Shown: positions 4,944 through 24,244, numbered from the stretch's first letter. The stretch: DNA of 32,000 bases from Acaryochloris thomasi RCC1774 (GCF_003231495.1 NZ_PQWO01000001.1:510001-542000); one strand, 5' to 3'. The notes: generated by a model not told the origin, from the sequence alone. Numbers and translations are program-made.

Positions 4944-5417
4944 ATGGACCGTCGAACGTTTATGTCTTGGGTTGGGTTAGGGTTCGTCGCCACGAGCTTG
5001 CCCGTTGCGATCGCAGCTTGCTCTTCTGACACAGCTGAATCCCCGACTGCGGATGCACCCGCCGATGCCCCACCACCGCCACCACCAGGAGCGCCCGCCC
5101 GGGAAGATGGTTTTGTTGAGGTCGGTACCGTTGCTGATCTAGACGCCAATGGTGCGATTGCAGATAAAGACTTTAGCGCCGGTCCTTTGTCTGTTTTTCG
5201 TGACCCTGCCAACAGTGAAGCGCTGATTGCGGTGAATGCCACCTGTGCCCACCAGGGCTGTGTCGCAGACTGGAGCAAAGATGCCAGTCTGCTCATCTGT
5301 CCCTGTCACGGTTCTAAATTCAATCCCGACGGCAGCATTGACACCGGCCCTGTCGAAAAGCCCCTTGATGTCTTTGAAGCCAAAATTGATGGAGAGGCTG
5401 TGTTAGTCAAGGCTTAA
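4944..5417 (+). CDS. Small Rieske [2Fe-2S] protein with a Tat signal and lipobox (PetC3-like)
   Basis: Twin-arginine leader MDRRTFMSWVG, lipobox AIAAC, and a Pro/Ala-rich linker. Rieske boxes CAHQGC and CPCHGSKF are both present. Confidence 0.8.
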   Translation: MDRRTFMSWVGLGFVATSLPVAIAACSSDTAESPTADAPADAPPPPPPGAPAREDGFVEVGTVADLDANGAIADKDFSAGPLSVFRDPANSEALIAVNATCAHQGCVADWSKDASLLICPCHGSKFNPDGSIDTGPVEKPLDVFEAKIDGEAVLVKA

Positions 5418-5670
5418 CTTTAGATGAGGGGCGATTAGTATCGCCCCCAATCGATTCATCTGGAGGTGGATGTAGTCCAGCTTGAATCCAAAAGCGTCTT
5501 GCACTCTGAATAGAGTCATTCTCTGGATAGCGAGTATCGTTAAGATCAAGGCGGTTACAAGTCGCTCGCCCTATAGGAGAAAGCCCCTCAATCAAGATCC
5601 CGGCTGCCTCCCATAGCAGTATTCACATAGGTAGTTGGCTCTTTCTCGCACAAACTGCCAATCTATTTCA

Positions 5671-12120: not shown

Positions 12121-12160
12121 CTGCATTGGCCCCCCCGGCCCCCAAATTCTGGGGGGAGAG
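12121..12160 (+). repeat. GC-rich palindromic repeat, copy A
   Basis: CTGCATTGGCCCCCCCGGCCCCCAAATTCTGGGGGGAGAG. It is related to copies at 13321-13358 (same orientation) and 13504-13540 (inverted). Confidence 0.65.
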
Positions 12161-13162: not shown

Positions 13163-13320
13163 AGTGGGTTGCGATCGCACAGAGAAGATGAGCCTGCTTT
13201 TGTTTAGGTGGTCAGCCGTTTGTTTGGTCAGTTTTGAATGCTTATTAATGGAGCACTGTAAATAGACAAGTCTTGTTGGCAAACGCACACTTGCTCGTAT
13301 CGTGAGATTTAGCAACACGA

Positions 13321-13358
13321 CTGCATTCGCCCCCCGGCCCCCCAATTCTGGGGGGAGA
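13321..13358 (+). repeat. GC-rich palindromic repeat, copy B
   Basis: CTGCATTCGCCCCCCGGCCCCCCAATTCTGGGGGGAGA. It forms an inverted pair with copy C, 145 bp away. Confidence 0.65.
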
Positions 13359-13503
13359 ACAGCTTTATCTTGTTATCTCTTTGCGTTCAATTGTGGCTGT
13401 GAATCAGCTTATTGTTAACCCATTTGATTTCAATAGTTGTCTACTCAAGTGGTGGTGAGAGCAACTCTCTAAATATTGGTACCACAATGAAAACTCTCAA
13501 AAC

Positions 13504-13540
13504 TCTCCCCCCAGAATTGGGGGACTGGGGGGCAGTGCAA
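13504..13540 (-). repeat. GC-rich palindromic repeat, copy C (inverted)
   Basis: TCTCCCCCCAGAATTGGGGGACTGGGGGGCAGTGCAA, about 80 percent identical to the reverse complement of copy B by eye. Confidence 0.6.
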
Positions 13541-13689
13541 GACGCTAATTGAAAGAAGGCAGCTTGAAATCATAGCGGTATACGCAAAAAGTCTTGTGTA
13601 TACGTTTGCCATGCAGGCATTGCAGGGCTAATGATGATTTTCTAGCAACCCAACAGCTTATTTGGGGTGTGTATAGTCACCTGCGACAA

Positions 13690-14075
13690 AATGAGTACGG
13701 TGAAAACACGTATAAATTAGTGTTTGTTTTATTTTGAAAATGGTTGATTTCCCTGATAGCTAACGATTTTGGCTGGGCATACTTGGATACAGAGAGCCAA
13801 TCATCTGCAGTATTTAAGGGGTTCAAAAAAGATAGAGCGTTCACAACAAAGGCTTTTATCTCTGGGCTGAAAAATAATTTTATTTTTCTGTCACCCAGTC
13901 AACACTCAATCTGTCTTTCTTGCCACTTGTATTGATGAAGTGACTGTTTTACAGCGGAGCTTGTTTCTAGGCCGCTGCGGTTTACTGCTGCTCTAACTTC
14001 AGTTGTGGTTCTTTCTACAAGGAGAAGCACTCTGACATTTGTGGGATCTGTCTCAAGCGGGGGAGTCCCAGTAGT
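13690..14075 (+). pseudogene. Relic of a third copy of the TIGR03032/GNAT/TPR/GT41 gene
   Basis: Only the upstream region, the start-codon region and the last roughly 100 nt survive. The upstream block ATTTTGGCTGGGCATACT (13766-13783) and the start region TTCTTGCCACTTG...ATTGATGAAGTGACTG align to 16701-16860 and 21270-21380. From about 13951 the sequence aligns to the 3' end of the gene (22178-22305 and 20412-20536). Confidence 0.55.
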
Positions 14076-14079
14076 TTTA

Positions 14080-14103
14080 CCTTGACCTCAGCGCGGGTGA
14101 AGG
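14080..14103 (+). promoter_or_regulatory. Hairpin in the conserved spacer upstream of the RTX gene (cassette 1 copy)
   Basis: CCTTGACC (14080-14087) and GGTGAAGG (14096-14103) pair with one mismatch. The homologous perfect hairpin lies at 22311-22334. Confidence 0.35.
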
Positions 14104-14146
14104 AATCCAATCTGTCTGTTGTTATTTAATTTAGTTGAGACGATTT

Positions 14147-16564
14147 ATGCCCTCTTTTAACGAGCAAACTGGCACCAATAATCCCTTTGACGGCATTGAT
14201 GCGGGGATTGAGGGTGATCCTACTTTGGTAGACGTAGATGGCGACGGCGACTTTGATCTGGTAGCGGGGGATAGCGACGGTGCGCTCAGATACTTTGAAA
14301 ATACAGGCGGTGCCACCACCCCTAGCTATAGCGAACAAACCGGCACCAACAATCCTTTTAACGGGATTGATGTGGGAGACGATAGCTCTCCTGCTTTTGC
14401 TGATATTGATGGCGACAGCGACCTTGATCTACTAGTTGGAGGAAATAATGGTGGCGTTCAACTAGAGTATTTTGAGAATATAGGTAGTGCCACTAACCCT
14501 AGCTTCAGCGCACAGACCGGCACCAATAACCCCTTGGGCAGGCTTTCTGTGGGATATGACAACTCACCTACCTTTGCTGATATCGATGGCGATGGCGACT
14601 TTGATCTAGTGGTGGGAGATGATACCAATCAGCTCAGTTACTTTGAGAATACAGGTAGTGCCACCAGCCCAAGTTTCAGCCAGATCACCGGTACTAATAA
14701 CCCATTTGAAGGTATTGGCCAGGGAATTAACAGCTCCCCCACATTGGTCGATGTGGATGGAGATGGCGACCTTGACCTAGTGGTGGGCAATGGTAACTAT
14801 ACACTCAGTTACTTTGAGAATATAGGTAGTGCCACTAACCCTAGCTTCAGCGCACAGACCGGCACCAATAACCCCTTTGACGGGCTTAACTTCGGAAGTG
14901 CTTTTGGCTCCGTTACACCTACTTTTGCCGATGTCGATGGTGATGGCAACCTCGATCTAGTCTCTGGCACAGGGCAATTAAGCTTCTTCGTCAGCAATGA
15001 ACCAGCGATCATTACTGGCGATATTTCAGGTGCAGTTACTGAAGACACTACCACTACAACTGCCACTGGCACACTAAACGCAACCGATGTTGACTCCAGC
15101 GCTGACTTCACTGTGCAAACTGATACTGCTGGTACATACGGCACCTTCTCTATCGATGCAGCTGGAGTCTGGACTTACACGCTCGACAACGCTGATGCTG
15201 ATACCGATGCTCTAGAAGCAGATGAAATGATCACGGATGTCTTCACTGTCGCCACAGCTGATGGCACAACTCAAGAGGTCACCGTCACTGTCACAGGTGC
15301 TAATGATGCAGCTATCATCGCCGGCACAACAACAGGTGCAGTCACTGAAGATGACGCTATTACGACTGCGATGGGTAGCCTAATGGCCACCGATGTCGAT
15401 TCCAGCACTGACTTCGCAGTGCAAACCGATGCAGCGGGCACCTACGGCACATTCTCCATTGACGCATCCGGCAACTGGACCTACACCCTCGATAACAGTG
15501 ATGCTGATACAGAAGCTTTGGGTTCTAGTGACACTGTTACAGATGTGATCACCGTTGCTACTGCCGATGGCACGACTCAAGATATCACCATCACCATCGA
15601 TGGCAATAGTGATACCGTTCAAATCGGTACTCCTGGCCCCGATCTAATTGTGGGAACCCCCCTCGACGATACTCTAGAAGGCTTAGATGGCAACGATCGC
15701 ATCCGTGGCCTTAACGGCAACGACCTCATCTTGGGCGGCAACCACAGTGACACCCTCTTTGGCGACGGCGGCAACGATTCCCTCTTCGGCGGCAACGGCA
15801 TCGACCGACTGTTTGGCGGCAACGGCAACGATTCCCTCAACGGTGGCAACAACAACGACACCCTCTCAGGCCAAGGTGGCGACGATACGCTCTTGGGCGG
15901 CAGCGGCAACGATATTCTCATCGGTGCTGCAGGCAATGACCTCCTGCAAGGCGGACTCGATAACGATCGCCTCGTCGGTGGCAGCAATGACGACAGGCTG
16001 TTTGGCCAAGCAGGTAACGATACTCTGATCGGAGCTAGCGGCCTCGATTCTCTGGTCGGCTCCGCAGGCAATGACCTTCTACAAGGGGGCACTGGCAATG
16101 ATTCCCTCAACGGCGGCAACGACAACGATGTGCTCGAAGGTCAAGGTGGCTTCGATATCTTAATCGGTGCCAGCGGCGACGACCTGCTCGTAGGTGGTTC
16201 TAACGATGACACACTCACAGGCGGCACTGGGTCTGATACATTCCGATTTGACGTTGGCTTCAACAGCCTCGGCCTTGATACGATTACAGACTTCGCTAGC
16301 AATGATGTACTGGAGTTAAGCCAGTCTGTCTTTGGGCTGATGGGTGCCATCGGTGGCGTCATCGATGTGAGTGACTTTGCAAGCGTTAGCTCTTTTGCTG
16401 AGGCCGAAAGCAGTGGCGCAGCGATTGCTTACAACAGTAATGACGGTAGCCTCTATTTCGATGCCAACGGCGCTGCAGCCGGATTTGGCAACGGCGGCGG
16501 TCAGTTCGCTCAGCTAGAGAACGCCTTCGACCTCCAAGCCAACCAGATTGAATTGATTGCCTAA
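14147..16564 (+). CDS. FG-GAP-repeat / VCBS-type / RTX (hemolysin-type Ca-binding) repeat protein, likely T1SS substrate
   Basis: Five blades of the form FENTGSATxPSF..QTGTNNPF..(x)PtfADIDGDGDLDLVVG (DxDxDG calcium loops). Two 101-aa VCBS-like units follow (TEDxxxTxxGxLxATDVDS...TYGTFSIDAxGxWTYTLDN). Next come about 20 GGxGNDxL nonapeptides and a C-terminal DTITDF...YNSNDGSLYFDANG domain. There is no N-terminal signal peptide. The ATG at 14147 is preferred over the TTG at 14135. Confidence 0.85.
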   Translation: MPSFNEQTGTNNPFDGIDAGIEGDPTLVDVDGDGDFDLVAGDSDGALRYFENTGGATTPSYSEQTGTNNPFNGIDVGDDSSPAFADIDGDSDLDLLVGGNNGGVQLEYFENIGSATNPSFSAQTGTNNPLGRLSVGYDNSPTFADIDGDGDFDLVVGDDTNQLSYFENTGSATSPSFSQITGTNNPFEGIGQGINSSPTLVDVDGDGDLDLVVGNGNYTLSYFENIGSATNPSFSAQTGTNNPFDGLNFGSAFGSVTPTFADVDGDGNLDLVSGTGQLSFFVSNEPAIITGDISGAVTEDTTTTTATGTLNATDVDSSADFTVQTDTAGTYGTFSIDAAGVWTYTLDNADADTDALEADEMITDVFTVATADGTTQEVTVTVTGANDAAIIAGTTTGAVTEDDAITTAMGSLMATDVDSSTDFAVQTDAAGTYGTFSIDASGNWTYTLDNSDADTEALGSSDTVTDVITVATADGTTQDITITIDGNSDTVQIGTPGPDLIVGTPLDDTLEGLDGNDRIRGLNGNDLILGGNHSDTLFGDGGNDSLFGGNGIDRLFGGNGNDSLNGGNNNDTLSGQGGDDTLLGGSGNDILIGAAGNDLLQGGLDNDRLVGGSNDDRLFGQAGNDTLIGASGLDSLVGSAGNDLLQGGTGNDSLNGGNDNDVLEGQGGFDILIGASGDDLLVGGSNDDTLTGGTGSDTFRFDVGFNSLGLDTITDFASNDVLELSQSVFGLMGAIGGVIDVSDFASVSSFAEAESSGAAIAYNSNDGSLYFDANGAAAGFGNGGGQFAQLENAFDLQANQIELIA
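15010..15615 (+). repeat. Tandem 303-bp (101-aa) VCBS-like coding repeat, two units
   Basis: Unit A starts at ATCATTACTGGCGAT (15010) and unit B at ATCATCGCCGGCACA (15313). The protein units align along their whole length. The block is absent from the paralogue at 22377-24170. Confidence 0.8.
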
Positions 16565-16600
16565 ACTACTGGTAACAAGTCAACTGAATAGATAAGCAAA

Positions 16601-16632
16601 AGCCAGCCGATCATGATCGGCTGGCTTTTTTG
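16601..16632 (+). terminator. Rho-independent terminator of RTX gene 1
   Basis: AGCCAGCCGATC (16601-16612) pairs with GATCGGCTGGCT (16615-16626), followed by TTTTTT. Confidence 0.8.
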
Positions 16633-16845
16633 CCTGACAAGTATCGGCTCATCTGATCCGGTAAAACCAACCGCACGATTGCGATATGGCGTAGATTTAT
16701 ATTTTGACTGGGCACACTGAAAGCAAAAGAGTGAGCGCATTTTATAGAAAAGTTTGAGGCTAGCGTTCCCCTCTCATGATCAGGACATGGCTGCTTTCTA
16801 TAACCTTTGACCCGCAATGACTTTATTGTTACCCCAGATTGATAC

Positions 16846-19800
16846 ATGACCGCTTCTTTGAATGAGCCACGTTTATCGAGTACTCCTGGCGGTGACGCAG
16901 GTGTCGCCGCGCCAACGTTAGAGGCTACCCATTCTGAAGGGTTCGGCCATTGGCTGCAGCAACAGCAGCTCAGTCTAGCCTTTACGACCTACCAAACGAA
17001 TCGCTTATTTTGTCTGGGCACGACACAGGCAGGGAAAATGGCGCTACATGAACGCTTGTTTGATAAGCCAATGGGCCTGTTCGCCCAGGACAATCGCCTC
17101 TACATGAGTACCCGCTATCAAATATGGCAGCTCGATAATCTGCTAAGACCCGGAGAACTGCGTCAGGGTTGCGATCTCATCTACACCCCAAAACTAGCGC
17201 ACACAACCGGCGACCTCAACGTTCACGACGTGGTTATCGACGCATCCGGCGAACTTCTGTTTGTGAATACCGACTTCAACTGTTTAGCCCGTCTCAGCCC
17301 TGACTATAGCTTTGTACCGCAATGGCGACCGCCCTTTATCTCGAAATGGGTCGCCGAAGATCGCTGTCACCTCAACGGCCTCGCCCTGCGAGAGGGCAAA
17401 CCGGCCTACATGACCGCCTGTAGCAGCACCAATACAGCCGCCAGTTGGCGTCACCACCGGGTTGACGGCGGCGTCGTGATGGATATCCAAGCCAACGAAG
17501 TGATCGCCACGGGCCTCTCAATGCCCCACTCGCCACGCTGGTATCGCGGCAAGCTCTGGTTGCTCAATTCAGGGACCGGTGAACTCGGTCACATCGACTT
17601 CGACAGCGGTGCCTTTGTCCCGCTCACCTTCTGCCCCGGCTTCGTGCGGGGAATGACCTTTTGCGGCAACGTCGCCGTGATCGGTCTATCAAAATTGAGG
17701 TCAAAATCTTTCACCGGTCTAGCGCTGGAAAAACGACTAACGGCAGCGGGAGATCGCCCCCACTGTGGCTTGATGGTTGTTGACCTAGAGACCGGCAACG
17801 TTTTGCATTGGCTGCGTTTAGAGGGAGTCGTTGAAGAGCTTTTTGATGTGGTGGTGCTACCCAACGTCCGCCAGCCGCAATCTCTAGGGTTCCAGTCTGA
17901 TGAAATTGAGCGGCTAGTCACCTTCCCAGAGGCTGAAGGGATTGTGGTCACAAAACCCACGGTCAAGCGCCCGAGTTTGGCAGGCAAAGCCCCCGTTGCT
18001 GGCGTACCCCGCACCGTCTGGGATGGGCAGTCAAGCTCCTCAACGGCTTCAGTCCCGTCGATCGCTGCCGCTTTAGACTCCCTTAAGTTTCAGCACGTTT
18101 ACCATCTGACACCAGAAAATCTGGCAGACTACGACGATTTCACGTTTCCGCGTCTACGGCAGCGCTGGTCACAGCAGCCTCAGCGCGGCGAGATGCTCGG
18201 CGTATCAGCGTCGGTAGAGGGCGACATGGTGGCCTTCGGTGTGGCTGAGCTGCTGCCCGATCAGTCGGCTGAGGTGATCTCGCTTTGGGTGACCCCAGAG
18301 TACCGGCAACAAAGGATCGGACAGCGGTTGATGGCAATTCTGGAGCAGAAAGTCTGCCAAGAGGGCTGCACTAAACTGTTAATCGCCTACGAGGCCACTG
18401 CCCTTACCCAGATAGAGCCTTTATTGAAAAACTTGGGCTGGCAAGCCCTCTCTCAGAACCACACCCAGCATAGATGGCACAAAAATTTCGCACCGCAGCT
18501 TGAGAAAGAGGCACCACACCCCTTTGAGCAGGGCAAAGCCTTTGCTAAGCAAGGAGATCTAGACGCAGCCATCGCTTGCTTTACTGAGGCCCTTCGCCAA
18601 CGCCCCGACCACCTCGCCGCCTATAACCAACTGGGCAATGCCTATCAGCAGTTGGGGCAAACAGAAGATGCGATCGCAACCTATCAAGCCCTCTTAGAAC
18701 GCAATCCCAACGTCGCGCAGGCCCACGCCAACCTAGGGGCGATCTGGCAGATTCAGGGGAAAACGGGAGATGCGATCGCATCCTATCAAACCGCCATTGC
18801 CCTCAAGCCCGACTTAACCGTAGCCCATCTCAATCTAGCCAAGCTGCACGCAACAGCAGGCCAGCAAAAAAACGCTGCAGTGCATTATCAAGCGGCCCTT
18901 GCAGCCGATCCCCAACAAGTAGAAGCCCACTACGGCCTTGCCAAGGTATCGCTGACTCAGGACCATTTAGAGCAGGCAAACGCCTGTTTTCGGCAGGTTT
19001 TAAAGCTCCAGCCGGAACACTCAGCCGCTCTATTAGAGCTAGGCTTTTTGTCTGAGGCCCAAGGGCAACTAGCGGTTGCTCGTGCCTGCTACCAGAAGCT
19101 ATTTAATACCTGCCTAGAGTGGCAGCATTTAGCCGCTTACCAGCTTAGCTATGTGCGGCGGCAGCTTTGCAACTGGCAGCACGACGATGCGCGTATGACA
19201 GAGCTACTGCAGCGCCTTGAGACGCACATTGCTCAGACCGACAGTCCTGCCCTCGCCCCCTTGAGCCTGAGCGTTTTCCCCGCATCGCCAGCATTGCATC
19301 GGGCCGTGAACGAACACCACGCAGCGCAGATTCAGCGACGCATGGCCGAGACTAAAGAACGATGTCATTTCCAGCATCCTCAGGGGCCTGTCGATAAACT
19401 GCGGATTGGCTACGTCTCGCCTGATTTCCGCAATCATCCGGTGGGCTGGCTGATGCAAGATTTGTTTCAGTACCACGACCGCGATCGCTTTGAAATCTTT
19501 GCCTATAGCCTCCGCCATGCCGAAGATTCAGTGCAGGCCAACATTGAGGCCGGGTGCGATCATTTTATCGACTGCTCCCAGCTATTGCCGGAAGAGAGTG
19601 CTCACCGCATTCATGCTGATGGCATTCATATTTTGATTGATCTAGCGGGTTACACCACCTATTCTCGACCTGAGATTTTTGCGCTGCGTCCCGCACCAAT
19701 TCAGTGCAGCTATTTAGGCTATCCCGATACCACCGGTTCAGAGAGTATCGATTATCTGATCACCGATGAGTGGGTCGTGCCGCCTGCATTGGCAGCTCAC

Positions 19801-20505
19801 TGTACTGAGCAGGTGGTCTACCTACCGCATCAGTTTGTGGTATCGCCAACATTCGCAGAGTCTTGTTTGCCAAAGGCCGAGATAGATCAAGAGGTACTAA
19901 AACAAGGGAATTTAAAGCAGACCCGCCAGGACTATGGTTTACCTGCAAAGGGGTTTGTGTTCTGTTGTTTTAATCTCCATCGCAAGATCGAACCGACGGT
20001 GTTTTCGGTGTGGATGAAGATTTTGCAGCAGGTACCAAACTCAGTGCTTTGGCTCTCAGATGGGCCAGACCCGGTCAAGGTGAATCTGCGTCAGGCCGCC
20101 CAGGCTCATGGGGTTGCGGCAGAGCGATTGATTTTTGCCCCTCGGCTCCCCTTTGACGAATACTTAGCCCGCTATCAATTTGCTGATTTGTTTCTGGATA
20201 CCTTCTCCTATGGAGCGGGTTCGACCGCAATCTGCGCGCTCTCTGCAGGAGTACCTTTGTTGACCCATCCAGGCGAGACCAATGCCTCACGGATGGGGGC
20301 CAGCATTTGCGCGGCAGCGGGCTTAGAAGACTTGCTGATTTGCGACAGCATATTGACCTACGAACAAAGGGCTGTGCATCTTGCAACTCACGCAGAAGAG
20401 ATGGCGACCCTACGGCAGAAGTTACGCGGCAATCGCAGCAATTTACCGCTGTTTCAACCCCAGCAATGGATCTCTCACTGGGAAGAAACGCTAGAGAAAC
20501 TCTGA
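16846..20505 (+). CDS. Four-domain fusion protein: TIGR03032-like domain + GNAT acetyltransferase + TPR repeats + GT41 (OGT/SPINDLY-type) glycosyltransferase
   Basis: About aa 25-360 (HSEGFGHWL..LSLAFTTYQTNRLFCLG...) resembles the uncharacterised TIGR03032 family, from memory. About aa 415-545 is GNAT (VISLWVTPEYRQQRIGQRLM). About aa 560-770 holds at least 5 TPR units (AYNQLGNAYQQLGQTEDAIATYQALLERNPN etc.). About aa 780-1219 is GT41-like (RIGYVSPDFRNHPVG, LIDLAGYT, YLGYPDTTG, FCCFN, FLDTFSYGAGSTA). Confidence 0.8.
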   Translation: MTASLNEPRLSSTPGGDAGVAAPTLEATHSEGFGHWLQQQQLSLAFTTYQTNRLFCLGTTQAGKMALHERLFDKPMGLFAQDNRLYMSTRYQIWQLDNLLRPGELRQGCDLIYTPKLAHTTGDLNVHDVVIDASGELLFVNTDFNCLARLSPDYSFVPQWRPPFISKWVAEDRCHLNGLALREGKPAYMTACSSTNTAASWRHHRVDGGVVMDIQANEVIATGLSMPHSPRWYRGKLWLLNSGTGELGHIDFDSGAFVPLTFCPGFVRGMTFCGNVAVIGLSKLRSKSFTGLALEKRLTAAGDRPHCGLMVVDLETGNVLHWLRLEGVVEELFDVVVLPNVRQPQSLGFQSDEIERLVTFPEAEGIVVTKPTVKRPSLAGKAPVAGVPRTVWDGQSSSSTASVPSIAAALDSLKFQHVYHLTPENLADYDDFTFPRLRQRWSQQPQRGEMLGVSASVEGDMVAFGVAELLPDQSAEVISLWVTPEYRQQRIGQRLMAILEQKVCQEGCTKLLIAYEATALTQIEPLLKNLGWQALSQNHTQHRWHKNFAPQLEKEAPHPFEQGKAFAKQGDLDAAIACFTEALRQRPDHLAAYNQLGNAYQQLGQTEDAIATYQALLERNPNVAQAHANLGAIWQIQGKTGDAIASYQTAIALKPDLTVAHLNLAKLHATAGQQKNAAVHYQAALAADPQQVEAHYGLAKVSLTQDHLEQANACFRQVLKLQPEHSAALLELGFLSEAQGQLAVARACYQKLFNTCLEWQHLAAYQLSYVRRQLCNWQHDDARMTELLQRLETHIAQTDSPALAPLSLSVFPASPALHRAVNEHHAAQIQRRMAETKERCHFQHPQGPVDKLRIGYVSPDFRNHPVGWLMQDLFQYHDRDRFEIFAYSLRHAEDSVQANIEAGCDHFIDCSQLLPEESAHRIHADGIHILIDLAGYTTYSRPEIFALRPAPIQCSYLGYPDTTGSESIDYLITDEWVVPPALAAHCTEQVVYLPHQFVVSPTFAESCLPKAEIDQEVLKQGNLKQTRQDYGLPAKGFVFCCFNLHRKIEPTVFSVWMKILQQVPNSVLWLSDGPDPVKVNLRQAAQAHGVAAERLIFAPRLPFDEYLARYQFADLFLDTFSYGAGSTAICALSAGVPLLTHPGETNASRMGASICAAAGLEDLLICDSILTYEQRAVHLATHAEEMATLRQKLRGNRSNLPLFQPQQWISHWEETLEKL

Positions 20506-21365
20506 GATCTGTTCTAAGACAGGAAAGTCCCCATCGTGCTGCCTTCATCTTTTTGGGCCGCTTCACGGAGAATGCGGCCCATCTTAATTGAGGGGAATTG
20601 AAGAATGGAGACGGTTGCGATCGCATCGATCAACCGCTGTCTCTCTCATCAAGAACAGGCCTACTCTCACATAGATTATCCCGCAATGTCTTCATTTGCT
20701 TAGACCGCACAGCTCCAGATCAGTAAGCTATCAAGCCTGCGATATGACATCAAAAGAAATCAGCCGTCCGTCAGACACGATCAGGCGACAAGAAACTTAA
20801 AACGATAGCCATTGCGTTTTTGAAGATTGCACCACGAGGCTGAAACGCTTACCCCAAGCCACAAAAAGCAAAACAGAAGCTGTACCAGCAGAAAACAGCT
20901 TGGAGAAATCCTGTATGTTTTTAAGTCTTATTTTATTGAGCTATAAACACTCAGTTATTATCATCCTAAATACTAGGTATAACGCTGTAACCCTTGCTCT
21001 ACAAAAGTGATAGTTAACGCTCGAATATTTCTGCTCCAGAAATTCAGGTTTTTTTGTATGCTTTGATGTTCTACTTTGTTGGTTTCAAAAACAACTTTCG
21101 CATGATGTTGGCATACCTCAGAATCACATCTAGGCAATAAAAACGTGTCTAAAAACAATAGAAGCATGATGAGATGGAGTTCTACAAAAAATATTTCCAG
21201 AGAAATTTTGTATATTTTCGCGTTTGTTTTTGCTTACCGCTACGTGTTGAATTCCATTGTTATACAAAGTTTTTAGCTGGGTACACTCAATTTCAGACAG
21301 CTTAATAATTTAAATTTCAAAATTCTATATAGACTTCTTCTTCTGCCAGTTGCTCGGATTTATTT

Positions 21366-22287
21366 ATGATTGCGTCTTTGAACCCGCAACGTTTACTGAA
21401 CGTTGTGAAATTCTCCGCTGACGATAAAAATTTCGAACCCCCAGCTATAGCCTCCCAGCTAAAAGTGACTCATTCTGAAGGGTTACCCAATGGGTTACAG
21501 CATCAAGACCTGAATGTAGCTTTTACCACTCATCAAACCAACCGTCTTTTCTGCGTGAGTCTCGTCCAGAAGGACGTATAAACAATGCGTGAACGCTTGG
21601 TTGACAAGCCGATGGGTCAATTTGCCCAGAATAATTGCCTCTGCATGAGTACTCGCCATCAGAAGTGGCAGCTCGATCATTTGCTAAGGGCACGAGGGTT
21701 GCGTCAGAGTTGCGATCGCATCTATATCCCTGAACTGGCTTACACGACCGATAACCTCAAAATCCGTGAAGTGGTTCCATCTGAGTCTGTCGAACAACAG
21801 ATGTTGCGGCAGGTTCCGGGAGCAGCGCTATTGCTCTTTGATAGGACAAACTCAGTCAAGGTCAACGTGCGCCAAGCCGCACGCGCCCAGGAGCTTGATC
21901 CTGACCAACTGATCTTTGCTCCTCAGCTACCCTTTAACGAATATTTAACCCGCTATCGCTGTTCGGATCTGCTCCTAGACGCCTGCACCTACAGGGTCGG
22001 TTCGACGGCGATTGCACTCTCAGCCTGGTTGCCGTTGCTCACCCATCCTGATGCATCACAAACGGAAGCCAGTATCTGCGCAGCGGCGGGTTTCAAAGAT
22101 TTGCTCATTTGTGACAGTGCTGTTGCTTATGAGCAAAAGACAGTCCATCCTGCCACTCATGCAGGTGGGATGGCTGCCATATAGCGGAGATTATGCGAAA
22201 ACTGCAGCAGGTTTACCGCTATTCCAACCCCAGTCGTGGATTTTCTACTTGGAAGAGTCTCCTGGGAAGCTCTGGGATCTGTCTTAG
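21366..22287 (+). pseudogene. Pseudogene copy of the fusion glycosyltransferase gene
   Basis: ORFs 21366-21581, 21585-22184 and 22012-22287 align to parent aa 1-130 and about 1053-1219. The copy has one in-frame TAA at 21579-21581 and a deletion junction near 21777-21800 (parent nt about 17236-20000 missing). A frameshift near 22170 is the third lesion. Confidence 0.85.
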
Positions 22288-22310
22288 GACGGGGGAGTCC
22301 CATCGCTTTT

Positions 22311-22334
22311 CCTTCACCTCAACATAGGTGAAGG
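22311..22334 (+). promoter_or_regulatory. Hairpin in the conserved spacer between the glycosyltransferase (pseudo)gene and the RTX gene
   Basis: CCTTCACC (22311-22318) pairs perfectly with GGTGAAGG (22327-22334), 43 nt upstream of the RTX ATG. Its position is conserved with 14080-14103. Confidence 0.4.
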
Positions 22335-22376
22335 AATTCAATCTGTTCTTCATTAAATTATTAGTTGAGACGATTA

Positions 22377-24170
22377 ATGCCCACCTTTAACGAACAAACC
22401 GGCACCAATAACCCCTTTGATGGGATTAATGTTGGAAGTGACAGCCACCCTACCTTTGCCGATATTGATGACGATGGGGATCTTGATCTACTGATCGGGG
22501 ACTTTTCCGATGGCATTCTAAACTTCTTTGAGAATACGGGTAGTGCCTCTAGCCCCAGCTATGTTGAACAAACCGGCACCAATAACCCTTTCGACGGTAT
22601 TTCTAGAAGTGAAAGCACCCCCACCTTTGCCGACATTGATGGCGATGATGATCTTGATCTGGTTATTGGACAATCCTTCGGTGGCCTGAGTTTCTTTGAA
22701 AATACAGGCAGTGCCACTAGCCCTAGCTACATCGAACAAACTGGCACTGATAATCCTTTCCCTAGCGTTGGTTCAAACGATAGCAACTCTCCCTTCTTTG
22801 CCGATCTTGATGGCGACGGTGATCTCGATCTAGTCACGGGAGATGGCAATGGCACGATAAACTACGTTGAGAACACGGGCAGTGCCACTAGCCCCAGCTA
22901 CATCGAGCAAACCGGCACTAACAATCCCTTCGATGGGTTTAATGTAGGCTTTGAAAGCCAACCGGTCTTGGCTGATGTTGATGGTGATGGCGACCTTGAT
23001 CTAGTTGTTGGGGCTGGCAGTGGCACAATCAATTTCTTTGAGAACACAGGCAGTACAACCAGTCCCAACTACATCGAGCAAACCGGCACTAGCAATCCCT
23101 TCGATGGGTTTAATGTGGGGGGTGAAAGCCAACCTGTCTTGGCTGATGTTGATGGTGATGGCGACCTCGATCTAGTTGTTGGAAATGGCCCTGGCACAAT
23201 CAATTTCTTTGAGAATGCCGGGAGTCCCAATGGCGCGACCCCTGGTCCAGATCGCCTTTCAGGAACCCCTGATGACGACACTTTAGAAGGCTTAGATGGT
23301 CGAGATCGTCTCAATGGCCGAAATGGCAATGATCGCATCGTAGGCGGCAATGGTAGTGACACCCTCCTGGGTGAAGGTGGTAACGATACCCTCTTCGGCG
23401 GCAGCGGTATCGACCTCCTCTTTGGCGGTAACGGCAATGACTTTCTTAATGGGGGCAACAATAACGACACGCTGCAGGGCCAAGCGGGAGACGATACTCT
23501 TCAAGGCGGCAGCGGCAACGATATATTGATTGGCTCAACAGGAAGCGACCTGCTTCAAGGGGGACTCGACAACGACTTCCTGAGTGGGGGGAGCGACAAC
23601 GACACGCTGGTCGGCCAAGCCGGAGATGATACTCTCCTAGGCGGAAACGGACTCGATCGTCTGATCGGCACTGCAGGTGATGACCAACTAAGGGGTGGCT
23701 TCGGCAACGATACACTTAACGGCGGCAACGACAACGATGTGCTCGAAGGTCAAGCTGGTTCTGATCGCTTGATTGGCGGCGGCGGTGACGACATTCTCGT
23801 CGGTGGCTCCAGCGATGACACACTTGTAGGTGGAGTCGGGTCTGATACGTTCCGATTTGGCGGTGGCTTCAACAGCCTCGGCACCGATACGATCATAGAC
23901 CTTACCAGCGATGATGTAATGGAGTTGAGTCTGTCTGTCTTTGGTCTGACAGGTGCCATCGGTGACATCATCGATATGAGCGAGTTCGCCAGCGTCAGCT
24001 CTCTGGCTGACGCCGAAAGCAGTGGTGCATCCATCGCTTACAACAGCAATGATGGTAGCCTCTACTTCAATGCCAATGGCGCTGCAGCAGGCTTCGGTAC
24101 TGGCGGTCAGTTCGCTCAGCTCAACAATACCTTTGACCTCCAAGCCAGTCAGATTGAGTTGATTGCCTAA
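22377..24170 (+). CDS. FG-GAP-repeat / RTX calcium-binding protein (paralogue of 14147-16564, lacking the VCBS units)
   Basis: Five FG-GAP-type blades, then GGxGNDxL repeats and a C-terminal domain nearly identical to the paralogue (YNSNDGSLYFNANGAAAGFG...QIELIA). The start context TTGAGACGATTAATGCC matches 14135-14151. Confidence 0.85.
   Translation: MPTFNEQTGTNNPFDGINVGSDSHPTFADIDDDGDLDLLIGDFSDGILNFFENTGSASSPSYVEQTGTNNPFDGISRSESTPTFADIDGDDDLDLVIGQSFGGLSFFENTGSATSPSYIEQTGTDNPFPSVGSNDSNSPFFADLDGDGDLDLVTGDGNGTINYVENTGSATSPSYIEQTGTNNPFDGFNVGFESQPVLADVDGDGDLDLVVGAGSGTINFFENTGSTTSPNYIEQTGTSNPFDGFNVGGESQPVLADVDGDGDLDLVVGNGPGTINFFENAGSPNGATPGPDRLSGTPDDDTLEGLDGRDRLNGRNGNDRIVGGNGSDTLLGEGGNDTLFGGSGIDLLFGGNGNDFLNGGNNNDTLQGQAGDDTLQGGSGNDILIGSTGSDLLQGGLDNDFLSGGSDNDTLVGQAGDDTLLGGNGLDRLIGTAGDDQLRGGFGNDTLNGGNDNDVLEGQAGSDRLIGGGGDDILVGGSSDDTLVGGVGSDTFRFGGGFNSLGTDTIIDLTSDDVMELSLSVFGLTGAIGDIIDMSEFASVSSLADAESSGASIAYNSNDGSLYFNANGAAAGFGTGGQFAQLNNTFDLQASQIELIA
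22899..23240 (+). repeat. Recent tandem duplication of one FG-GAP blade (2 x 171 bp)
   Basis: Units 22899-23069 and 23070-23240 are about 90 percent identical at the nucleotide level by eye, both starting TACATCGAGCAAACCGGCACTA. They are far more similar to each other than to the other blades. Confidence 0.8.
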
Positions 24171-24206
24171 ACCATTTGCAATTGAGTCAATTGAATAAAT
24201 AAAACT

Positions 24207-24244
24207 AGGCCAACAGATTAACGATGAATCTGTTGGCCTTTTTG
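24207..24244 (+). terminator. Rho-independent terminator of RTX gene 2
   Basis: AGGCCAACAGATT (24207-24219) pairs with AATCTGTTGGCCT (24227-24239), followed by TTTTTG. Confidence 0.8.

Follow-up and report, generated by a model that had tools for sequence, protein, structure and literature searches.

A tandemly duplicated gene pair in Acaryochloris thomasi RCC1774 links a multi-domain OGT-like enzyme to FG-GAP/RTX proteins and points to a recurrent TIGR03032/FG-GAP gene association

Two groups of described bacterial systems combine a cytoplasmic modifying enzyme with a secreted protein that is encoded beside it. In the HMW1C/HMW1 system of Haemophilus influenzae and in related pairs of a GT41-family N-glycosyltransferase (NGT) and an adhesin, the gene for the GT41 enzyme lies next to the gene for the large secreted repeat protein that it modifies, the modification precedes export and occurs in the cytoplasm, and one enzyme can serve paralogous substrates. 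In the HlyC/HlyA and CyaC/CyaA systems, the gene for a dedicated cytoplasmic acyltransferase shares an operon with that for an RTX protein which, once modified, is exported by a type I secretion system (T1SS). Here we analyze a 32-kb window of the Acaryochloris thomasi RCC1774 genome (NZ_PQWO01000001.1:510001-542000, assembly GCF_003231495.1; positions are counted from the first letter of this stretch), in which three tandem cassettes on the plus strand contain a single intact gene for a 1219-aa enzyme with TIGR03032/DUF4915, GNAT, TPR and GT41 domains, and two genes for FG-GAP/RTX proteins, hereafter RTX1 and RTX2. The conserved gene pair likely points to an undescribed protein-maturation system, the logic of which resembles the arrangement of a dedicated modifier and a secreted substrate in hmw1C/HMW1 and hlyC/hlyA.

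The comparison with the known systems reveals differences as well as likenesses. HMW1C represents the TPR-less NGT subclass, modifies Asn in N-X-S/T sequons and serves an exoprotein of the two-partner-secretion type, whereas the GT41 domain of the present enzyme is OGT-like and fused to TPR, GNAT and TIGR03032 domains, and its FG-GAP/RTX partner is probably of the T1SS type. The OGT-like GT41 domain led us to reject an HMW1C-type NGT; the corresponding model NF049992 gives 34 bits against a cut-off of 1000, restricted to aa 1099-1203, and a TPR array is present. HlyC and CyaC acylate internal lysines from acyl-acyl carrier protein, whereas both RTX1 (805 aa) and RTX2 (597 aa) contain no lysine at all, and also no cysteine; HlyC-like lysine acylation is therefore rejected. 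The GNAT domain is nearest to RimI and Naa60, the partner proteins have no pore-forming toxin domain, and no HlyC-family gene was found in the window. The C-terminal 670 aa of the enzyme, including the catalytic His and Lys motifs, resemble the TPR-GT41 protein O-GlcNAc (O-linked N-acetylglucosamine) transferases (OGTs), such as human OGT, Xanthomonas XcOGT, plant SPINDLY and cyanobacterial homologues; however, the known OGTs are stand-alone proteins with many substrates, whereas the present enzyme carries N-terminal TIGR03032 and GNAT domains and is linked in the genome to a single class of secreted proteins. Similarly, RTX1 and RTX2 share the DxDxDGxxD calcium loops of integrin-alpha-like FG-GAP/VCBS propellers (integrin alpha, CRTAC1, bacterial VCBS proteins), but they have five blades instead of seven or eight and a distinct conserved repeat signature, FENTG...SPxY.EQTGTxNPF. 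Among the FG-GAP_3 loci that we scanned, only this close subfamily is linked to TIGR03032, whereas 65 more distant loci are not.

The first-pass annotation of this DNA had proposed three tandem copies of an enzyme-RTX pair that decayed in complementary ways, and a BLASTN comparison of the window with itself confirms that the cassette repeat structure is real. The matching segments are 13979-14961 with 22210-23176 (68.7%) and 15629-16595 with 23238-24202 (76.9%), which make the RTX1 and RTX2 genes homologous along their length, as well as 20018-20550 with 21799-22319 (68.8%) and 16927-17235 with 21468-21776 (71%). Taken together, the window holds three copies of the enzyme gene, each with an 18-nt upstream block and a 3' end, of which one is intact, and two intact FG-GAP/RTX paralogs. 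Cassette 1 begins with the upstream block at 13766-13783 and has lost almost the whole enzyme gene, as proposed: about 75 nt of its 3' end remain (13979-14056, the last ~25 codons), followed by the enzyme-RTX intergenic spacer (14057-14146) with its hairpins and RTX start context, the RTX1 gene (14147-16564; supported by Pfam, NCBIfam and the annotated ATG at 14147) and a terminator hairpin with a 14-bp stem and a T run (16598-16629). The segment 13979-14115, upstream of the RTX1 start, matches 22210-22346 of cassette 3 at 103 of 139 positions (z=32), which indicates that a piece of the enzyme 3' end and the spacer survive in cassette 1; at the protein level, the remainder of the enzyme left no trace in 13300-14200.

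Cassette 2 comprises the upstream block at 16701-16718, the intact enzyme gene (16846-20505) and a spacer remnant (20506-20550), at the end of which the BLASTN homology to cassette 3 stops. Thus, the 3' end of the enzyme gene and the adjoining spacer are homologous in all three cassettes, whereas the proposed loss of an RTX gene from cassette 2 cannot be demonstrated from the window itself and has indirect backing from the array of a relative described below. Beyond 20550, shuffle tests detected no significant similarity of cassette 2 to the other cassettes, and the site of the would-be RTX gene is occupied by an AT-rich non-homologous filler (20551-21189, GC content 0.36-0.45) in which there is no open reading frame (ORF), RTX remnant or Rfam match; tblastn at lenient settings likewise found no RTX remnant in 20480-21400. 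The RTX start context is common to cassettes 1 and 3, but its suggested degenerate copy in cassette 2, TGGAGACGGTT at 20606-20616, does not stand above shuffled sequences and coincides with a short repeat containing GCGATCGC (family D13). The start-codon regions of the enzyme gene show a comparable split: those of cassettes 2 and 3 are homologous (71%, with aa 1-136 of the protein aligning), but the one assigned to cassette 1 (13920-13950) scores no better than shuffles.

Cassette 3 contains the upstream block at 21270-21287, an internally deleted enzyme pseudogene (21366-22287; tblastn, with Pfam fragments of DUF4915 and GT41), the spacer (22288-22376), the intact RTX2 gene (22377-24170; Pfam, NCBIfam, annotation, AlphaFold2) and a terminator hairpin with a 13-bp stem and a T run (24207-24239). 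In the pseudogene, aa 1-136, which contain an in-frame stop, run straight into aa 1046-1198, which contain a second stop and are followed after a frameshift by aa 1198-1219, so that ~2.7 kb are deleted internally; the annotated 199-aa 'hypothetical protein' (21585-22184) is a piece of this pseudogene. The ratio of nonsynonymous to synonymous substitution rates (Ka/Ks) is 0.14 between RTX1 and RTX2; both paralogs are under purifying selection, and thus both genes are functional. For the intact enzyme, Ka/Ks is 0.08 against its ortholog in the relative L086 and 0.16-0.18 against the cassette-3 pseudogene, a rise above the orthologous value which indicates that the pseudogene was constrained through much of its history and relaxed later. 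The Ks values are near saturation (1-1.9), and thus the duplications are old. The comparisons back the reading of a tandem duplication whose copies decayed in complementary ways; such a history is in itself ordinary genome evolution.

The pairing of the enzyme and FG-GAP genes extends far beyond A. thomasi. We assembled a forward sample of 80 loci by a genome-contig scan seeded on TIGR03032 motifs, with FG-GAP matches scored by tblastn and Pfam, which covers Cyanobacteria, Beta-, Gamma- and Alphaproteobacteria, Planctomycetes, Myxococcota, Desulfobacterota and others. In 34 of the 80 loci, and in 22 of the 51 loci that have at least 3 kb on both sides, an FG-GAP repeat gene is no more than 3.5 kb away from the TIGR03032 domain; several further pairs emerge when a GT41 domain may intervene or the genes may be divergently oriented (L014-16, L018, L030, L037 and L062). 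FG-GAP matches cover 14% of the bases at 0-2 kb, as compared with 2% at 8-10 kb. The linkage of the two genes is tight, they are usually on the same strand and immediately adjacent, and the FG-GAP subtype follows the enzyme subtype: TIGR03032 genes with a GNAT domain adjoin FG-GAP_3 (PF13517) genes in 11 of 12 assessable loci versus 4 of 67 others (Fisher 1.7e-9), and all nine sampled neighbors of GNAT-less TIGR03032 genes encode classic seven-repeat FG-GAP (PF01839) proteins. A GT41 match, either fused, adjacent or within the 10-kb flank, occurs in 20 of the 80 loci. In the reverse direction, among 80 metagenome loci with relatives of the RTX2 FG-GAP domain, 6 of the 15 closest relatives have an adjacent TIGR03032 gene, whereas the 65 more distant FG-GAP_3 loci, which score more weakly, have none (p 1.7e-5). 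These results from both directions argue that the TIGR03032/FG-GAP link is specific, bidirectional and ancient.

The remaining part of the partner protein varies between loci and may carry cadherin, RTX, Big_12, PATR, GEVED or DUF4347 domains, while the FG-GAP domain is constant. The constant pair is the TIGR03032 propeller (joined by GNAT where the partner is of the FG-GAP_3 type) and the FG-GAP domain, GNAT and GT41 being frequent add-ons and RTX a variable element. In three loci from Nostoc and Microcoleus (L014:3729-5048, L015:2684-7249 and L061:2225-8413), the TIGR03032 neighbors open with DUF4347 and continue with FG-GAP or RTX repeats; DUF4347 is one more uncharacterized domain that travels with the system. 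The repeated co-duplication of enzyme and partner had been read as a sign that the two genes form a functional unit; adjacency recurs in Cyanobacteria, Beta- and Gammaproteobacteria, Planctomycetes, Myxococcota and Desulfobacterota, so that the outcome which had been named as refuting this reading, enzyme and FG-GAP/RTX families never being neighbors elsewhere, is not what we found; a functional unit is strongly supported by these genomic comparisons. The accompanying remark that no described module of this kind was known holds in part: the literature that we searched provided nothing relevant on a pairing of TIGR03032/DUF4915 or on GT41/OGT combinations with FG-GAP/RTX proteins, but hmw1C/HMW1 and hlyC/hlyA exist as conceptual analogs. 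TIGR03032, with or without GNAT and GT41, forms with an FG-GAP exoprotein a conserved module that is apparently undescribed.

A protein of A. thomasi RCC1774 with the public names 'Lipopolysaccharide assembly protein B' or 'protein O-GlcNAc transferase' shows 100% identity to the 1219-aa product of 16846-20505; the domain content does not support the former name. By Pfam, NCBIfam and AlphaFold2, the domains are arranged in the order TIGR03032/DUF4915 (aa 26-359, nt 16921-17922), GNAT (aa ~405-548, nt 18058-18489), TPR (aa 555-770, nt 18508-19155) and GT41 (aa 774-1219, nt 19165-20502). The first domain matches its family model over the full length and scores 469 bits with the NCBIfam model (cut-off 251.5) and 446 bits with Pfam PF16261 (cut-off 35), and it contains the invariant motifs EDRCHLNG and LSMPHSPR; the His/Cys/Asp/Arg motifs of the family are perfectly invariant across phyla. 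The family is large, with 7934 of 8000 scored candidates at E <= 1e-20, and is not mentioned in the literature searched. In an AlphaFold2 model of aa 1-550 (mean predicted local distance difference test score, pLDDT, 80), a disordered linker connects a six-bladed beta-propeller to a GNAT fold. For the TIGR03032 part, Pfam at E <= 10 returns DUF4915 alone, and a PDB profile search gave matches in the GNAT part only. The GNAT domain scores 39.2 bits with PF00583 (cut-off 20.7), shows the alpha/beta GNAT fold at aa 405-550, and has the N-alpha-acetyltransferases RimI and Naa60 as its closest PDB sequences. Several TPR families match aa 555-770 and PF13844 scores 321 bits in the GT41 part; the best PDB matches of this TPR-GT41 region are human OGT (E 4e-137), followed by XcOGT and SPINDLY. 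The catalytic motifs are kept, as GYVSPDFRNHP and RKIEP align to GYVSSDFGNHP and YKIDP of the human enzyme, in which H498 is the catalytic His and K842 the UDP-binding Lys. By these profile and alignment criteria, the enzyme is a bona fide member of the TIGR03032, GNAT and OGT-like GT41 families. It has no signal peptide.

Each of the two partner proteins opens with five 57-residue FG-GAP_3 repeats and ends in a C-terminal part of RTX nonapeptide repeats; RTX1 alone bears two additional VCBS/cadherin domains. PF13517 scores 87 bits in RTX1 and 78 in RTX2 (cut-off 26.9) and PF00353 scores 148 and 227 bits, respectively, with 18 repeat units at the DNA level; both are genuine proteins of the FG-GAP and RTX-repeat types. 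They lack a signal peptide, the repeats begin at residue 2-5 (MPSFNEQTG...), and the C-terminal 70-80 aa are conserved between the two. The partner N-termini are also conserved across loci, as M-[SAT]-[DE]-P-x-F...TNPFG and MP[ST]FNEQTGTNNPF, and the inter-blade segments are conserved and Ser/Thr-rich (ENTGSATSPSY-EQTGTNNPF). Several partner proteins from elsewhere are also very lysine-poor, with 1-2 lysines in 300-513 aa (L023 and L032). The AlphaFold2 model of the FG-GAP domain of RTX2 (22377-23249) shows five four-stranded blades (predicted template modeling score, pTM, 0.80), and a Foldseek search with it retrieved CRTAC1 as the top PDB match, then TcB/TcC propellers, GlcNAc-binding fungal lectins and integrins. 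The likeness to the GlcNAc-specific fungal lectins PVL and AAL-2 (template modeling score, TM, ~0.44) is one of fold only. The public names in this region include 'Leukotoxin' and 'VCBS domain-containing protein' for RTX1, as well as 'Hemolysin, chromosomal'; we rejected the toxin names, since the RTX_toxin model NF033943, with a cut-off of 1000, gives 131 and 127 bits and matches the repeat region only.

The closest relative of the A. thomasi enzyme, 77% identical at the amino acid level, is encoded on a metagenomic contig (L086) that preserves a similar array. The same alpha/beta-hydrolase gene is followed, with no cassette 1 in between, by an intact enzyme gene and directly after it by an RTX C-terminal remnant (5405-5598); further downstream (L086:6707-7184), a second enzyme 3' remnant and the conserved spacer lead to an RTX start at the contig end. 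This array supports the past existence of an RTX gene partnered with the intact enzyme, and it shows that duplication and differential decay are recurrent in this lineage. On a 3.6-Mb contig from an unrelated metagenome (L085, 1905-18151), the components are multiplied and unfused, in the order DUF4915, FG-GAP/RTX, fragments, DUF4915+GNAT, three FG-GAP/cadherin genes and a separate TPR-GT41 gene. The same order of enzyme and partner is found in the independent loci L081, L084, L085 and L087. An ABC exporter is encoded near the gene pair in L081. In a Methylococcaceae locus (L010:11115-12230), a DDE transposase separates the TIGR03032 gene from a 175-aa RTX C-terminal remnant, and the partner gene was probably disrupted by transposase insertion.

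The noncoding parts of the cassettes suggest how the surviving RTX genes might be expressed. All three 18-nt upstream blocks, which had been reported from inspection of the sequence, lie exactly where they had been placed, and those of cassettes 1 and 2 share 16 of 18 bases, a value equaled in 2 of 500 shuffles; the element is also partly kept upstream of the enzyme ortholog in L086 and is a putative promoter or regulatory element of the operon. The derived pattern TTTTRRCTGGGYAYACT recovers these three sites only in the 32 kb, although this test of uniqueness is circular, as the pattern was built from the very sites that it recovers. A scan with the sigma-70 consensus yielded no site above background and none at the 18-nt block. 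Strong terminator hairpins occur only downstream of RTX1 and RTX2, with none between the enzyme remnants and the RTX genes, which fits transcription units composed of the upstream block, the (dead) enzyme gene, the spacer, the RTX gene and the terminator; such units would likewise account for the retention of the upstream block and spacer beside inactivated enzyme copies.

The enzyme-RTX spacer (14041-14146, 22272-22376 and L086:7020-7122) is better conserved than the dead coding sequence. Alignment and folding place one hairpin at the enzyme stop (TGGGATCTG...GTCCCA) and a second one, of 9 bp, in the form CCTTCACCT-N6-AGGTGAAGG; in addition, ATCTGTCT motifs of the spacer are complementary to TTGAGACGAT directly upstream of the RTX ATG. 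RNAalifold on the three sequences predicts a long-range stem, with two compensatory pairs, that joins the regions of the enzyme stop and the RTX start; when cassettes 1 and 3 are folded singly, however, the minimum-free-energy structures favor local hairpins over this stem, and the long-range pairing is absent from more distant loci. The spacer structure may serve translational coupling or mask the ribosome-binding site. A 29-nt G/C-rich element, CCCCCCGGCCCCC(A/C)AATTCTGGGGGGAGA, occurs at 12131-12159, 13330-13358 and, inverted, at 13503-13533, and its three copies bracket both the hydrolase gene and the stretch immediately preceding cassette 1; it may be a small repeat or a sequence resembling miniature inverted-repeat transposable elements. 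Ordinary cyanobacterial housekeeping genes surround the cassette region on both flanks, and an Rfam search of the whole window provided no matches.

We consider it probable that the locus represents a tandemly duplicated operon in which a cytoplasmic enzyme modifies its secreted FG-GAP/RTX partner before export, and we infer the following mechanism. The ancestral operon would have comprised the conserved upstream element, the multi-domain modifying enzyme, the secreted FG-GAP/RTX protein and the terminator. After duplication, the redundant enzyme copies would have been lost, since one enzyme can act in trans: copy 1 by deletion of nearly all of the gene, and copy 3 by an internal deletion and subsequent decay. 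The two partner genes would have been retained under purifying selection and diversified, and the dead copies presumably keep the upstream block and spacer since these continue to drive and control RTX expression. As the enzyme lacks a signal peptide and depends on acetyl-CoA and a nucleotide sugar, it is expected to act in the cytoplasm; the partner, given that it lacks a signal peptide, starts with FG-GAP repeats and ends with RTX repeats, probably exits by a T1SS encoded elsewhere and would fold with Ca2+ outside the cell. As a partner of the T1SS type would be unfolded in the cytoplasm, any interaction with the enzyme must precede export, and the TIGR03032 propeller and/or the TPR array may recognize the still-unfolded FG-GAP repeats. 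To our knowledge, all characterized GT41 enzymes glycosylate proteins in the cytoplasm, which makes O-glycosylation of the FG-GAP repeats the most economical model; the OGT-like GT41 domain could target Ser/Thr, for instance in the ENTGSATSPSY-EQTGTNNPF inter-blade segments. The RimI/Naa60-like GNAT domain might add an acetyl group, possibly as a later step; as RTX1 and RTX2 contain no lysine, the target cannot be a lysine and may be the conserved N-terminus. The TIGR03032 domain could be either a recognition module or, in view of the invariant EDRCHLNG and LSMPHSPR motifs, a further catalytic metallo-propeller. A bolder proposal, which we put forward tentatively and as falling short of even chances, is that TIGR03032/DUF4915 proteins are unrecognized cytoplasmic metallo-propeller enzymes that, together with GNAT and OGT-like GT41 domains, constitute a maturation system, widespread across phyla, that is dedicated to secreted integrin-like FG-GAP proteins, installing a new modification needed for export, folding or adhesion.

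Several observations weigh against modification of the partner before export. The 32-kb window contains no T1SS genes, and any glycan must be small enough for the T1SS channel. About half of the TIGR03032 loci have no FG-GAP neighbor, and many but not all of these are on short contigs. The Foldseek matches of the TIGR03032 domain are only generic six-bladed propellers with 9-15% identity. The third RTX gene, that of cassette 2, is supported indirectly, solely through the relative L086. Finally, the acetyl-CoA loop RxxGxG, which is conserved in the family with the consensus RxQGIG (RxxGxA in some members), reads YRQQRIGQ in this enzyme (nt 18301-18321, aa 486-492), where the first Gly is replaced by Arg (G490R); in an alignment of 46 GNAT-bearing homologs, this Gly is kept in all but one of the other 45, the exception being P0052 with Lys. 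The substitution may impair acetyl-CoA binding, in which case the GNAT step would be weakened in this enzyme.

Other explanations account for some of these facts. The enzyme and the FG-GAP protein might act in the same pathway without being enzyme and substrate, the enzyme modifying another target such as a surface or matrix component and the FG-GAP propeller being a secreted Ca2+-dependent lectin or adhesin that binds the product. OGT-type enzymes transfer GlcNAc, the fold matches of the FG-GAP domain include the GlcNAc-specific PVL and AAL-2, and the gene pair of L081 adjoins polysaccharide-type genes (GT2, sulfotransferase, LicD and epimerase); however, the likeness to lectins is modest, characterized GT41 enzymes modify cytoplasmic proteins as far as we know, and neither the tight same-strand linkage nor the FG-GAP subtype that tracks the enzyme subtype speaks for separate targets, so that we regard this explanation as unlikely. 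It is also conceivable, although in our view quite unlikely, that TIGR03032 is non-catalytic and either serves FG-GAP propellers as a cytoplasmic chaperone, anti-folding factor or secretion adaptor or gives immunity to a toxic exoprotein, GNAT and GT41 being unrelated fusions. Such a role would agree with the generic propeller fold, a common protein-binding scaffold, and with the occurrence of TIGR03032 alone beside FG-GAP genes in most loci, but the His/Cys/Asp/Arg motifs that are invariant across phyla look like an active or metal site, the repeated independent fusion or adjacency with GNAT and GT41 argues for a modification pathway, and a toxin domain is absent from the FG-GAP/RTX proteins (RTX_toxin, 131 bits versus 1000). 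That segmental duplication in one lineage produced the adjacency and the repeats by accident, without any functional link, seems highly improbable and is already contradicted by the locus surveys: the window by itself is compatible with such an accident, and neither T1SS genes nor others of a pathway lie close to the cassettes, but the pairing recurs across phyla, the distant FG-GAP_3 loci provide an internal negative control (0 of 65), and both RTX paralogs are under purifying selection.

The locus bears on several protein families. TIGR03032/DUF4915 is a large, uncharacterized family with perfectly conserved motifs, for which the genetic link now provides a testable hypothesis. For bacterial FG-GAP/RTX exoproteins, an abundant group of obscure function that is mis-annotated as hemolysins or leukotoxins, it likewise supplies a hypothesis, namely a dedicated cytoplasmic modification of type-I-secreted integrin-like proteins by an OGT-type glycosyltransferase and a domain resembling N-acetyltransferases. 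The A. thomasi locus itself is a clean example of operon duplication in which the trans-acting gene was lost and the cis-regulatory pieces were retained. If the proposed modification is true, a bacterial OGT-type enzyme would gain a candidate class of substrates, and the T1SS cargo a new route of maturation.

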